This document shows positions 41,086 to 46,813 of a stretch of 64,000 bases of DNA, one piece after another. Each line of letters opens with the position of its first letter. Positions within the stretch are counted from its first letter, which is position 1. The notes under the pieces are model-generated. The model was given only the letters and a program-made list of their open reading frames with translations, ran no database searches and was not told the origin of the DNA. Origin of the DNA: Escherichia coli (GTDB lineage Bacteria > Pseudomonadota > Gammaproteobacteria > Enterobacterales > Enterobacteriaceae); the NCBI RefSeq assembly GCF_041886205.1, contig NZ_CP169029.1; one strand, written 5' to 3'. The position numbers were made by a program, and so were the translations under genes.

Positions 41086-41757
41086 ATGAAGATTTTACTT
41101 ATTGAAGATAATCAAAGGACCCAGGAGTGGGTAACGCAGGGGCTTTCCGAAGCGGGTTATGTCATTGATGCCGTTTCTGATGGCAGAGATGGGCTTTATC
41201 TTGCGCTGAAGGATGATTATGCATTGATCATTCTGGATATTATGCTTCCGGGTATGGATGGCTGGCAGATCTTACAAACGTTAAGAACAGCAAAGCAAAC
41301 CCCTGTTATTTGCCTTACTGCAAGGGATTCTGTCGATGACAGAGTCAGAGGGCTGGACAGTGGAGCAAATGATTATCTGGTAAAACCTTTTTCATTTTCT
41401 GAGTTGCTGGCAAGGGTTCGGGCACAATTAAGGCAACATCACGCTTTGAATTCAACATTAGAAATCAGTGGCTTAAGAATGGACTCTGTTAGTCAAAGTG
41501 TGAGCAGGGACAATATCAGTATTACACTGACGCGCAAGGAGTTTCAGTTACTTTGGCTACTGGCCTCCAGAGCTGGCGAAATTATACCCAGAACGGTTAT
41601 TGCGAGTGAAATTTGGGGAATCAACTTTGATAGTGATACCAATACGGTGGATGTCGCCATTCGCAGGCTCCGCGCAAAAGTTGATGATCCTTTTCCTGAA
41701 AAGCTAATCGCCACAATCCGGGGGATGGGCTATTCATTCGTAGCGGTAAAAAAATAA
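41086..41757 (+). CDS. hprR: Two-component response regulator HprR (YedW), OmpR family
   Basis: 223 aa from MKILLIEDNQRTQEWV...; the track ORF's 37-codon upstream extension would include the HprR box. Confidence 0.88.
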   Translation: MKILLIEDNQRTQEWVTQGLSEAGYVIDAVSDGRDGLYLALKDDYALIILDIMLPGMDGWQILQTLRTAKQTPVICLTARDSVDDRVRGLDSGANDYLVKPFSFSELLARVRAQLRQHHALNSTLEISGLRMDSVSQSVSRDNISITLTRKEFQLLWLLASRAGEIIPRTVIASEIWGINFDSDTNTVDVAIRRLRAKVDDPFPEKLIATIRGMGYSFVAVKK

Positions 41758-43115
41758 TGAAAAGATTATCTATAACCGTCCGTTTAACCTTGCTTTTTAT
41801 ATTGCTGCTGTCTGTTGCTGGCGCTGGAATTGTATGGACTCTCTATAATGGCCTGGCAAGTGAGTTGAAATGGCGCGATGATACAACACTCATTAACCGG
41901 ACAGCGCAGATCAAGCAGTTGTTAATTGATGGGGTAAATCCAGATACGTTACCTGTGTACTTTAACCGGATGATGGATGTTAGTCAGGATATCTTGATCA
42001 TTCATGGTGATGGCATCAATAAAATTGTTAACCGGACGAATGTCAGTGATGACATGTTAAATAACATACCTGCTAGTGAGACAATCAGCGCAGCTGGCAT
42101 TTACAGAAGCATTATTAATGATACAGAGATAGATGCTTTACGAATTAATATTGATGAAGTTTCGCCATCATTAACGGTTACTGTGGCTAAATTGGCTTCA
42201 GCCAGACATAACATGCTTGAACAGTATAAAATTAATAGCATTATAATTTGCATTGTCGCCATTGTACTTTGCTCAGTATTAAGTCCGCTGTTAATCAGAA
42301 CGGGATTACGAGAGATCAAAAAGTTGAGTGGTGTAACGGAAGCGCTGAATTATAACGATAGCCGGGAGCCTGTTGAGGTTAGCGCATTACCGAGAGAACT
42401 AAAACCTCTTGGGCAGGCGTTGAATAAAATGCATCAAGCCTTAGTCAAAGATTTTGAACGCCTAAGTCAATTTGCTGACGATCTCGCTCATGAACTTAGA
42501 ACGCCCATTAATGCATTACTGGGTCAGAATCAGGTTACGCTCAGTCAAACCAGAAGTATCGCTGAATATCAAAAAACAATTGCCGGAAACATTGAAGAGC
42601 TGGAAAATATTTCGCGGTTAACAGAGAACATACTGTTTCTTGCCCGGGCAGATAAAAACAATGTTTTGGTAAAACTGGACTCGCTTTCTCTCAATAAGGA
42701 AGTCGAAAATTTGTTGGACTATCTTGAATATCTTTCAGACGAGAAAGAGATTTGCTTTAAGGTCGAGTGCAATCAGCAAATCTTTGCGGATAAAATTTTA
42801 CTGCAACGAATGCTATCGAATCTTATTGTTAATGCCATTAGATATTCACCAGAAAAATCGCGTATTCATATAACCAGTTTTCTTGATACCAACGGTTCTC
42901 TTAATATTGATATCGCCAGTCCTGGAACGAAAATACATGAGCCTGAAAAACTCTTCCGTAGATTTTGGCGGGGAGATAATTCGCGTCATTCCGTAGGTCA
43001 GGGACTTGGTCTTTCTTTAGTCAAAGCGATTGCCGAATTACACGGGGGAAGTGCTACGTATCACTATCTCAATAAGCATAATGTGTTCCGGATTACGTTA
43101 CCGCAAAGAAATTAA
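41757..43115 (+). CDS. hprS: Sensor histidine kinase HprS (YedV)
   Basis: 452 aa, two TM segments, HAMP, H-box (LAHELRTP) and ATPase motifs; start overlaps the hprR stop. Confidence 0.9.
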   Translation: MKRLSITVRLTLLFILLLSVAGAGIVWTLYNGLASELKWRDDTTLINRTAQIKQLLIDGVNPDTLPVYFNRMMDVSQDILIIHGDGINKIVNRTNVSDDMLNNIPASETISAAGIYRSIINDTEIDALRINIDEVSPSLTVTVAKLASARHNMLEQYKINSIIICIVAIVLCSVLSPLLIRTGLREIKKLSGVTEALNYNDSREPVEVSALPRELKPLGQALNKMHQALVKDFERLSQFADDLAHELRTPINALLGQNQVTLSQTRSIAEYQKTIAGNIEELENISRLTENILFLARADKNNVLVKLDSLSLNKEVENLLDYLEYLSDEKEICFKVECNQQIFADKILLQRMLSNLIVNAIRYSPEKSRIHITSFLDTNGSLNIDIASPGTKIHEPEKLFRRFWRGDNSRHSVGQGLGLSLVKAIAELHGGSATYHYLNKHNVFRITLPQRN

Positions 43116-43222: not shown

Positions 43223-44074
43223 TTAACCCGCGTAAGCTGCCAGCATTTCCTGCGCCGCCAGTTTACCCAACGCATTCGCTGCGAAAGGACTGTCGCCGGT
43301 GAGAACTTTACGGTCCTTATGTACTCGCCCGGTGATGTCGTCATTAATAATGTTCATGCCCATTTTCTTCAGCTCTTCGCCGAAGTACCAGGTGAGATGA
43401 CCCGGCATATAGCCTATCTCTGGCGTTTGTTTGTCTGCGGCGTCTGGGAATGCGCAAATGGAATAACCATTCAGTGGGTTATCGCCGTGGCGAAGCGCCA
43501 GAAAAGCCGCCGGGCCGTGGCAAAGGGAGATAACAAAACGGTCATTTTTGATTGCCCACTGTAAAGCAGCAGCCACGTCCTGGCTTTCTGGTAAACCAAT
43601 AAGTGCGCCATGACCACCAGGAACAAAGATTGCTGCATATTCGCTATCAGCGTTGAGGCTGGCGACAACATCCGCGAGTTTCTTCGGATTGCGGAACAAC
43701 GATTTATGCTGCTCAAAGAATGGCATTACTTTTTCATCTTTGTGCGGCATAGCCCAGTATTCAAACTTGGTCATCAGACCGGAAATGGTCGCCACTTCGA
43801 ATTCGAAACCTGCAGCATGGAGATGATACAACGGCAGCAACGTTTCAATCGGATGGTTACCAGTCGAGAACAGTTTTCCGTTATCGGTCGGCAAATAACG
43901 TTCGTCCGCGGCGATCACCAGAATTTTATGCTTACCGCGATACGGTTTTGGATAGTCCACGCCATCAAGATCAGAGACGGGACTGGTATATTGGCTAAGC
44001 GAATATTCTGAAGGGAAGAATGCATTATCTTCAGCAATATCGACCTGCGGATTTTTACTTGTTTGAACAGTCAT
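43223..44074 (-). CDS. hchA: Hsp31 glyoxalase / protein deglycase HchA
   Basis: 283 aa DJ-1/PfpI family with catalytic Cys in ...ISLCHGPAAF... Confidence 0.9.
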   Translation of the reverse strand: MTVQTSKNPQVDIAEDNAFFPSEYSLSQYTSPVSDLDGVDYPKPYRGKHKILVIAADERYLPTDNGKLFSTGNHPIETLLPLYHLHAAGFEFEVATISGLMTKFEYWAMPHKDEKVMPFFEQHKSLFRNPKKLADVVASLNADSEYAAIFVPGGHGALIGLPESQDVAAALQWAIKNDRFVISLCHGPAAFLALRHGDNPLNGYSICAFPDAADKQTPEIGYMPGHLTWYFGEELKKMGMNIINDDITGRVHKDRKVLTGDSPFAANALGKLAAQEMLAAYAG

Positions 44075-44585
44075 AGTGTATTCCTTATTGTTGCTTAGTT
44101 AGGGTAGTCACTATATTTGCGACTGAGCTGGTCGCTATTTTTAACCAGGCTGGAAAATTGAGTCAATATATCGAAAGCGGTAGTCGGCGGGTGTAAGTAT
44201 GTAATGATGATGCTGCACTGGTGTTGAATATTATTCACGCCAAATTTTCCTTATTGAGCAACGTCGTCGCAAGTGGCCTCAATGATTTTAGACCATTATC
44301 AGAGGTACGGGGCGGCGGGGAGAGATTTAGTGCTGTGGAATATTGTGGTGCTGATGAATATTTATATCCCGGATTGGTAGAGAAAAAGCTTATTTCATGC
44401 ACTATTTTTGCAAATATTTCTATATGGGAAGCGTGTTTGTTACGGGTTAATTCATCAGAATGTGCATTTGGGGTGTTGGCTGGAAGAGTCGCTGGTAGAT
44501 GTTATTGTGCCAGCAGGGGCAGGGTAAGGTACTGTATCGATATGCTTTGGCAATTGCATGTGCCGCAGATGGAGATGAAATGCCA

Positions 44586-44623
44586 ATAAAAAAGCCTGAG
44601 TTCGATGAGGGACGAACTCAGGC
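44586..44623 (-). terminator. Rho-independent terminator after the yedS-like porin gene
   Basis: GCCTGAGTTCG...CGAACTCAGGC hairpin followed by a T-run on the minus strand. Confidence 0.75.
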
Positions 44624-44666
44624 TAGTGTTAAGTTTTACAGTAACACGCCGCAGCGCGTTGGCTGA

Positions 44667-45881
44667 TTAGAACTGGTAGACTAAGCCCACAGCAACGATG
44701 TCATCGGTAGCGATGCCGTTGTTTGCGTAGAAGTCATCGTCGTTGTCCAGCAGGTTGATTTTGTAATCAACATAGGTGGACATGTTTTTGTTAAAGTAAT
44801 AGGTTGCACCAACCTCAACGTATTTAACCAGATCTTTATTGGTATAATGATAATTACCATTGTTGTACATTTCTTGACCACCTAAATCCTTACCTTTAGA
44901 TTGGAGGTAAGCAATTGAAGGACGCAGGCCGAAATCAAATTGGTACTGAGCAACAACTTCAAAGTTCTGAGTTTTGTTAGCGATACCACCGCCGCCAAGT
45001 TTCCCATCGGCTGAATGAGAGTCGCTGCTACCATAAGCGGTCATATTGCGAGTCTCTGCATACATTGCTGCTAAATATACATTGTTGGCATCGTATTTAG
45101 CACCAACAGTCCACGCTTCTGCAGTACCACCACCTGCATAGCTATTACCATAGAAATGATTGCCATCTCCATACCCACGAGCAGCTTGGTTATTGGAACG
45201 GTCAGAATTAGAGTAAGCAGCACCCAGACTTAAACCGAAGTCGAAGTCGTAGGAAGTAGACATACCGAAACCATCGCCATTTTCTTTAGCAAGGCTACGG
45301 CCATCTCCGCTGCCAGATCCTTCTTGGCCAAAGAGACTGTCACTGCCACTTTCATTATTACTCTGATATTGCAGCGCAAAGTTCAAGCCATCAACCTGAC
45401 CAAAGAAGCCATTGTTACGGTAGGTTGCAACACCGTTGGTACGACCGTTCATGAAATTGTCGGCACCAGCATAGGTATCGCCACCAAATTCTGGCAGCAT
45501 ATCGGTCCATGCTTCGATGTCATATACGACACCGTAGTTACGACCATAATCGAAAGTACCATTCTGACCAAAACCTAAACCTGCGAAAGCCAGACGGGTA
45601 GCAGAGTTATCTCCATCGCCTTCTGTGCCATTTGCTTGCAGGTTGTATTCCCACTGACCATAACCAGTGAACTGGTCAGCGATCTGAGTTTCACCTTTGA
45701 AACCGATACGGGCATATGACTTGTCGCCATCGCTGCCGGCATCATCAGAGAAGTAGTGCAGGCCCGCTACTTTTCCGTACAAATCCAGTTTATTACCATC
45801 TTTATTATAGATTTCAGCCGCATTTGCTGCGCCAGCAACTAATAACGCCGGGACCAGCATTGCCAGAACTTTTCTTTTCAT
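44667..45881 (-). CDS. yedS: OmpC/OmpF-family general porin, apparently intact (yedS-like)
   Basis: Signal peptide [22 protein letters not shown]-terminal [17 protein letters not shown] and C-terminal ...VGLVYQF typical of enterobacterial porins; Gly/Asp/Ser-rich loops; start placed at the internal ATG. Confidence 0.8.
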
Positions 45882-46192
45882 TATGTATTCCCTTGTGATT
45901 ATAATCTTCATGAATATATCAATAAGTGCCGTTATCCAAAAAAAAGCACATTTGGATACTATTCTATGAAGTTCATTTTATTTTAAGGATTACATGTAAC
46001 AAATGTATTTAAAAGATTTCAAAATGTTTCTAATCTATTTAATATAATTCAGGATTATGAATTCTAAATATAAATATTCATGAAAATTATAAATGTATAT
46101 CAATATGTTATGAGTTGAGCGGAAGCATAGGGGGTATCAATGATTGTTGCGCCAAACGGCTGGTGTGATCACGCGCACATTAATGAAGGCAT

Positions 46193-46285
46193 AAAAAAAA
46201 GCCGGCATCATGCCGGCCCAAAAAATATAAACAAGACGATAAAAGGCTAATAACGGAAGCATCATGACACAGAATAATAAAAAGG
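46193..46285 (-). ncRNA. rseX: Candidate small RNA (RseX-like), defined by a minus-strand intrinsic terminator
   Basis: GCCGGCATGATGCCGGC hairpin followed by T8 on the minus strand at about 46193-46217; no ORF upstream on that strand; 5' end not determined. Confidence 0.35.
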
Positions 46286-46429
46286 TATAATTGTAATCAG
46301 TGCTAATATATTGATTGAATGAATTAATAAAGCCGATCTCAAAGATAAATAAAATCGCTCAAAACGATTTTTCCTGTATTCACTGCCGTTGCGCAAAAAT
46401 TATCTATTTGTTCAAAAAATGAGTGAGTC

Positions 46430-46813
46430 TTGACTGGCTCATCCAATGTGGAAAAATGTGACTTTTATCACATAATAGTACTAAGTCTGAATTTTCCGGG
46501 TTATCTCAAAATGGAATACGGTTCGACAAAGATGGAAGAGAGACTCTCTCGCAGCCCTGGCGGCAAACTGGCTTTGTGGGCTTTCTATACATGGTGTGGC
46601 TATTTCGTCTGGGCAATGGCGCGTTACATCTGGGTGATGAGCCGGATCCCCGATGCCCCCGTGTCGGGATTTGAAAGCGATTTAGGTTCTACCGCGGGAA
46701 AGTGGTTAGGGGCACTGGTCGGCTTTTTATTTATGGCTCTGGTCGGGGCATTGTTAGGTAGCATTGCCTGGTACACTCGGCCTCGTCCCGCACGTAGCAG
46801 ACGCTATGAATAA
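46430..46813 (+). CDS. yedR: Inner membrane protein YedR (start codon uncertain)
   Basis: Small protein with two predicted TM helices; track start is TTG, an alternative GTG is 6 codons downstream. Confidence 0.75.
   Translation: MTGSSNVEKCDFYHIIVLSLNFPGYLKMEYGSTKMEERLSRSPGGKLALWAFYTWCGYFVWAMARYIWVMSRIPDAPVSGFESDLGSTAGKWLGALVGFLFMALVGALLGSIAWYTRPRPARSRRYE

Follow-up and report, generated by a model that had tools for sequence, protein, structure and literature searches.

The window (the whole stretch of Escherichia coli DNA that was analysed, 64,000 nucleotides long) carries the genes hprS, hchA, yedS, rseX, drpB and yedJ in this order, which matches the yedS locus of K-12 and that of strain 700462. 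The features that matter for what follows are these:

41757-43115, plus strand: hprS, a neighbour of the yedS locus.
43223-44074, minus strand: hchA, the downstream neighbour, one of the genes that define the locus.
44593-44624, minus strand: an intrinsic-terminator-like hairpin with a 12-bp stem (7 G-C pairs) followed by the T-run TTTTTATT, 43 nt past the yedS stop codon.
44667-45881, minus strand: the yedS coding sequence, an intact general porin gene and family A allele (families are described below), with Porin_1, NCBIfam OmpC subfamily and PDB matches.
44844-44882, minus strand: loop L7 (residues 334-346), hypervariable.
44985-45047, minus strand: loop L6 (residues 279-299), 12 residues longer than in OmpK37.
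45126-45200, minus strand: loop L5 (residues 228-252), 11 residues longer than in OmpK37.
45210-45216, minus strand: the site of the 1-bp deletion of K-12 (near nt 669); the frame of the window is unbroken here.
45273-45362, minus strand: loop L4 (residues 174-203), rich in Gly, Ser, Asp and Asn and hypervariable.
45396-45398, minus strand: codon 162, CAG (Gln), aligned with TAG in K-12.
45819-45881, minus strand: the signal-peptide codons (21 residues, cleavage before AE), with DNA identical across all allele families.
45861-45878, minus strand: a predicted pairing site for the 5' end of RybB (mRNA +4 to +21, AAAAGAAAAGUUCUGGCA), -18.0 kcal/mol.
45882-46193, minus strand: the leader and promoter region, 312 bp, 28.5% GC, 97-100% identical in all allele families.
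45889-45894, minus strand: a Shine-Dalgarno-like AAGGGA, read from the sequence, 7 nt upstream of the ATG at 45881.
46194-46283, minus strand: rseX, the gene of an Hfq-binding sRNA, directly upstream of yedS (Rfam RF01401, 97.7 bits against a gathering score of 50).
46532-46813, plus strand: drpB (yedR), the divergent upstream neighbour, which also defines the locus.

Translated on the minus strand from the ATG at 45881, yedS spans 1215 nt, or 404 codons plus a stop, with zero internal stops. The longest possible reading starts at the ATG at 45911 and yields 414 aa, ten residues more; the ATG at 45881 is also the start that PGAP assigned to the 99.9%-identical gene of strain 700462. The product begins with a typical porin signal peptide and ends in VGLVYQF, that is, it has both a cleavable signal peptide and a C-terminal aromatic beta-signal. 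An earlier note on this DNA had described a single open frame with a signal peptide, conserved porin termini and a proper terminator. Re-translation of the 404 codons revealed no stop or frameshift, and the 21-residue leader, the YQF end and the 12-bp hairpin at 44624-44593 bear out the rest of that description. The segment 44667-45881 is an intact yedS-type general porin gene.

The encoded protein matched the Pfam profile Porin_1 (PF00267) with 471.7 bits against a threshold of 23.7, covering positions 1-337 of the 337 in the profile. Its best relatives in the PDB were OmpK37 (488 bits), OmpK36 (about 440), E. coli OmpC (about 410) and OmpF (about 340-377). These porins align along the whole length of the product with E-values of 1e-145 to 1e-97, and it is mainly because of such whole-length matches to solved structures that we assign it the barrel fold. 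An AF2 model built from a 16-sequence alignment has 16 strands, its low-confidence segments being the eight loops; with a mean pLDDT of 58 its confidence is low, and it was used only to place strand and loop boundaries.

In published structures of OmpC, the pore is lined by an eyelet to which the barrel wall contributes K16, R37, R74 and R124 and loop L3 contributes D105 and E109. The corresponding residues of the yedS product (precursor numbering) are K37, R58, R96 and R147, and D127 and E131, respectively, and all six are invariant or nearly so among 16 homologues. The L3 constriction motif PEFGGD is present as well. Compared with OmpK37 and OmpC, the surplus length of the protein lies in L5 (+11 residues), L6 (+12) and L7 (+7), with minor differences in L4. 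The loops had been described as long and rich in Gly, Asp and Ser, which is what we found: Gly, Ser, Asp and Asn make up 20 of the 30 residues of L4 and 13 of the 21 of L6.

The gene adjoins drpB-yedJ and is divergently transcribed from them, as in K-12 and strain 700462; we refer to this position as the slot. RefSeq labels the gene 'ompC: porin OmpC', by which it would be the major porin of the strain. The protein belongs to the same family as E. coli OmpC, shares its eyelet residues and passes the NCBIfam OmpC model NF007841 (542.7 bits against a cutoff of 484), while the cutoffs of the OmpF and PhoE equivalog models were not reached. However, NF007841 is a model of the 'subfamily' type, which also accepts the porin of the Klebsiella slot and that of family B. 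Identity to K-12 OmpC is 66%, as against 70-71% to OmpN, and the protein is 37 residues longer than OmpC, nearly all of them in loops. The locus differs too: the true ompC of K-12 lies in the order apbE-ompC-micF-rcsD, whereas yedS is found between hchA and rseX/drpB, and the K-12 record holds the yedS locus and a separate ompC. On the basis of this position and of a neighbour-joining tree, in which the window protein stands apart from OmpN/OmpK37, from OmpC and from OmpF, we rejected an identity with OmpC, which we regard as next to impossible. The RefSeq label at the yedS locus is a naming artefact of the subfamily-level model.

OmpK37 (PDB 6v78), although it is the best match among solved structures and has the same fold and L3 motif, is encoded at another locus, as is OmpN; the yedS protein is 69-71% identical to these two and has longer loops L5, L6 and L7. 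We also considered OmpK37 as the Klebsiella counterpart of YedS and rejected it: OmpK37 clusters with OmpN (80%) rather than among the slot porins, and for the porin in the K. pneumoniae slot, identity is only 72% with OmpK37 and 73% with the window protein. In K. pneumoniae ATCC 13883, this is a gene for a 381-aa porin (L033, 3501-4643) that adjoins yedJ-drpB.

The yedS gene of K-12 (b1964-b1966) lies at the same locus, among the same neighbours, and its promoter region, leader and signal peptide are 97-100% identical to those of the window at the DNA level. It had been called a fragmented pseudogene in the earlier note, correctly: its annotation carries the flag 'frameshifted; internal stop', and alignment with the window located two lesions, a CAG>TAG change at codon 162 (Q162*) and a 1-bp deletion near nt 669, both of which are absent from the window. 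The pairwise alignments that had been suggested gave 85% DNA identity to K-12 yedS and 66% protein identity to OmpC. After repair of the lesions, the K-12 protein is 86% identical to that of the window; the two diverge in loops L2 and L4-L7, and their lengths are 404 aa in the window and about 397 aa for the K-12 copy.

Intact copies are widespread. The exact 404-aa protein is found on at least 1000 public contigs, where it is named "porin OmpC", "predicted porin" or "Porin". At least a partial match to yedS is present in 4,889 of 5,426 complete E. coli genomes, and a match over at least 80% of the gene length in 1,611; the subtype of the window (about 99% identity) occurs in about 250-370 complete genomes, as estimated by rank in an evenly spaced listing. 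We relied on coverage counts and rank positions rather than on identity bands, because short matches to the signal peptide only fall into the 95-99% band and make such bands unusable as allele counts.

Of 19 non-K-12 genomes sampled at even spacing, 14 had an intact slot gene and five a disrupted one. In FACU 2024, IS1 is inserted in the exact window allele; ERL06-2442 has a frameshift, ES3 and O25:NM have stop codons, and in 2012C-4502 a P2-like prophage is integrated after about nt 86 of the gene. IS1 was also seen in a family C allele, in EC17CM13. (The disrupted genes are at L012 1501-3492, hit H41, L011 2198-2287, L005, L009 and L097.) The slot gene has thus been knocked out repeatedly and each time independently, by IS1, prophage, stops or frameshift, and since five of the 19 sampled genomes have no working copy, yedS is dispensable. 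Having lost yedS, K-12 belongs to a minority of strains, and an intact gene is the usual state in E. coli. Because of this, the intact yedS of the window is unremarkable: the original observation was correct but ordinary and already known, and the gene had been annotated before.

What occupies the slot differs between strains. We distinguished at least four deeply diverged porin genes, families A-D, all with one common signal peptide:

Family A: 395-406 aa; the window, K-12, AHB6 and Z1323; members 85-95% identical to each other.
Family B: 387 aa; fECg99 (L006, 1501-2664); 73% identical to the window protein.
Family C: 357-371 aa; S40, 23AR0303 and UTI89; 61-63% identical to the window protein.
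Family D: 352 aa; FHI_NMBU_03 and strain 83972; 59% identical to the window protein.

The genes of families C and D have the coordinates L007 1801-2874, L008 1801-2916 and L010 2201-3259. Their products differ more from the window protein (59-63% identity) than do its paralogues OmpN (70-71%) and OmpC (66%). This divergence is confined to the codons of the mature protein, which correspond to 44667-45818 of the window. Its boundaries are sharp: the alleles are 97-100% identical as far as about 45830, and this level returns with the stop codon. For the 21 signal-peptide codons pS is 0 against every slot allele; OmpN and OmpC differ there. At a coverage of at least 80%, family A was found in 1,611 genomes and a family B query in 681, of which 599 were at 99% or above. 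A family C query found 2,565 of the 5,426 complete genomes, a count that includes cross-matches to family D at 74%.

For families C and D, the top PDB match was K. pneumoniae OmpK35 (506 and 445 bits, compared with 400 and 367.5 bits for E. coli OmpF), and the two families share an unusual L3 motif, LVEWGGD, in place of PEFGGD. By these matches, both are OmpK35-like and not OmpC-like. RefSeq names them just 'porin' because they fall below every NCBIfam cutoff. PGAP gives the slot genes of families A and B the label 'ompC: porin OmpC', with the result that such genomes hold two 'ompC' genes.

It is possible, though we would not call it probable, that the yedS position is a porin 'cassette' slot, in which a fixed promoter, leader, RybB site and signal peptide are joined to interchangeable mature-porin modules. 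Two of the modules (A and B) would be of the OmpC/OmpS1 type and two (C and D, in nearly half of the complete genomes) of the OmpK35 type. Our literature search found no description of these slot allele families, which is not proof of novelty.

The arrangement yedJ-drpB-porin is kept in Escherichia, Citrobacter, Superficieibacter, Klebsiella, Enterobacter, Lelliottia and other genera. A scan with one genome per species returned 80 loci, no Salmonella slot locus among them, and within the flanks fetched hchA and rseX were present only at the Escherichia loci. In the neighbour-joining tree, family A clusters with slot porins from Citrobacter and from other Escherichia species (80-86%), and family B with their counterparts from Enterobacter, Lelliottia and Trabulsiella (81%). 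The group formed by OmpC, OmpN and YedS does not include families C and D. That family B is closer to the Enterobacter and Lelliottia slot porins (81%) than to family A (73%) suggests trans-species polymorphism or exchange between genera.

We also weighed whether the window gene itself could be a recent horizontal import from another genus and not native to E. coli. At synonymous sites it differs from other E. coli alleles far more than is normal for the species, and the slot porins of Citrobacter, at 80-83% identity, are nearly as close to it as other family A alleles are. Nevertheless, the likeness to E. coli (97-100%) extends through flanks, promoter and signal peptide and ends only where the mature-protein codons begin, the subtype is present in about 250-370 complete E. 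coli genomes and family A in 1611, and the nearest relatives (85-86% protein identity) are found in other Escherichia species. A recent import is therefore very improbable, and the E. coli-like flanks, the wide carriage and the Escherichia relatives point instead to old allelic lineages shuffled by recombination.

The region upstream of yedS (45882-46531) has a GC content of 31%. The AT-richness ascribed to it in the earlier note thus stands, but it is not purely a promoter region, as it also holds the sRNA gene rseX, which has its own terminator at 46219-46199. Because rseX occupies 46194-46283, only 312 bp (45882-46193) are left as promoter and leader space for yedS, with 28.5% GC compared with 48.5% in the whole window. 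The promoter check that had been proposed for this region was carried out and pinned down none: a scan upstream of yedS gave 7 candidate sites where 6.2 were expected, none above chance, and none was called. The promoter-like hexamers at 46002-45975 and 46068-46041 do not exceed what chance would give. An 8-bp inverted repeat, TATCCAAA ... TTTGGATA, with a 10-nt loop was read from the sequence only, at 45933-45958; it lies about 52-77 nt upstream of the yedS start, possibly within the leader. On the other side of the gene, the 592-bp spacer that separates the yedS stop from the start of hchA (44075-44666) is 85-100% conserved. Some RefSeq genomes have an opposite-strand 'hypothetical protein' in this spacer (L003 2818-3030, L006 2698-3108); its equivalent in the window may be the ORF at 44221-44589 on the plus strand, which is probably spurious. 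The yedS-yedR intergenic region is already in use as a host-informative marker (PMC11267920).

Pairing of the 5' end of RybB (GCCACUGCUUUUCUUUG), a sigma-E-dependent sRNA, with yedS was predicted at -18.0 kcal/mol (z = -3.5), a value reached by 5 of 1000 dinucleotide shuffles. The known targets used as controls gave -17.4 kcal/mol (ompC, 29 of 1000), -18.8 (ompF, 13 of 1000) and -16.9 (ompN, 7 of 1000), and the predicted sites in yedS and ompN occupy the same mRNA position. These values were obtained with the full 5' end of RybB as the query; the Rfam start, which is missing the 5' GCC, gave no signal, known targets included. RybB is thus predicted to pair with codons 2-7 of yedS, at a site that is A-rich, and such a site could help explain why this stretch is identical across the allele families.

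The functional YedS studied by Warner and colleagues is reportedly under the control of MicF. For the window leader such control is not predicted: for nucleotides 1-35 of MicF, pairing with the leader and start of yedS came to -7.7 kcal/mol, and 396 of 500 shuffles did as well, while the positive control ompF gave -27.4 kcal/mol (z = -5.4). Direct pairing of MicF at the yedS start region is therefore unsupported. Duplexes of the whole MicF and RseX sRNAs with positions -80 to +45 had z-scores near 0, and the same was true of the known pairs.

OmpS1 of Salmonella is a quiescent porin, silenced by H-NS and StpA and controlled by OmpR and LeuO. YedS resembles it in its long-looped size and AT-rich regulatory region, and one source gives a 395-aa E. 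coli protein of family A the name 'outer membrane protein S1'. The two genes have been equated in the literature, and in the same work the yedS (ompS1) mRNA of K-12 went down 2.5-fold on induction of sigma-E (PMC2731931). The neighbouring rseX is silenced by H-NS and StpA (PMC8313858), and by analogy silencing of yedS by the same proteins is plausible. Expression of yedS would normally be low, since its promoter region, with 28.5% GC, resembles the H-NS-silenced rseX.

A rival reading is that yedS is open but cryptic: it would be permanently shut off, contribute nothing and have yet to acquire a lesion. The very AT-rich upstream region would fit such a gene, as would the behaviour of rseX, which is undetectable unless hns/stpA are removed (PMC8313858), and the frequent loss of the slot gene through stops, frameshift, IS1 or prophage. 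Serum antibodies to YedS are almost absent (0.71% of 141 people; PMC11242715), as measured on an array that presumably carried the K-12 sequence. The substitution pattern argues otherwise. In comparisons with two other family A alleles, dN/dS was 0.02-0.04 in barrel and turn codons, at a dS of 0.47-0.61, and 0.18-0.29 in loop codons. The barrel values indicate purifying selection sustained over a long time, which argues against a gene that is never expressed; at a synonymous divergence of about 0.5 they would be impossible without expression. Moreover, at least 1000 contigs carry exactly this protein, and a YedS-like porin was detected in the membrane proteome of STEC (PMC9731836). A functional YedS, likewise intact, has been reported from a clinical E. 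coli isolate as a porin affecting carbapenem susceptibility, and a connection between active yedS and carbapenem resistance has been published (Warner et al., 2013, AAC 57:1935, as cited in PMC4048246 and PMC11267920). The effect on permeability suggested in the earlier note agrees with this connection. An influence on sensitivity to phages or colicins, also suggested there, may exist; the hypervariable surface loops and the recurrent, independent knock-outs are indirectly in keeping with it. Taken together, we consider a cryptic gene unlikely.

The window gene is, in all likelihood, a working allele of yedS that encodes the accessory general-diffusion porin of the drpB-hchA slot. Its product would be exported and then inserted by BAM as a 16-strand trimeric barrel, through which small hydrophilic solutes, including beta-lactams and carbapenems, would pass the outer membrane. 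Under envelope stress, sigma-E would act through RybB, whose pairing at codons 2-7 would turn yedS off. The exposed loops are likely targets of phages, colicins or antibodies, which would explain why the loops are so diverse and why the gene is lost so often.

An intact yedS would give a strain a third entry route for beta-lactams and carbapenems, which matters once ompC and ompF are lost. The RefSeq label "ompC" on yedS can mislead automated calls of porin loss in resistance genomics. Four diverged porins behind one conserved control region could serve as a model for how the diversity of surface proteins is kept up. If the cassette reading of the slot is true, its deep lineages, sharp recombination boundaries and recurrent knock-outs would be signs of long-term balancing or frequency-dependent selection, with phages, colicins, immunity or antibiotics as the selecting agents.
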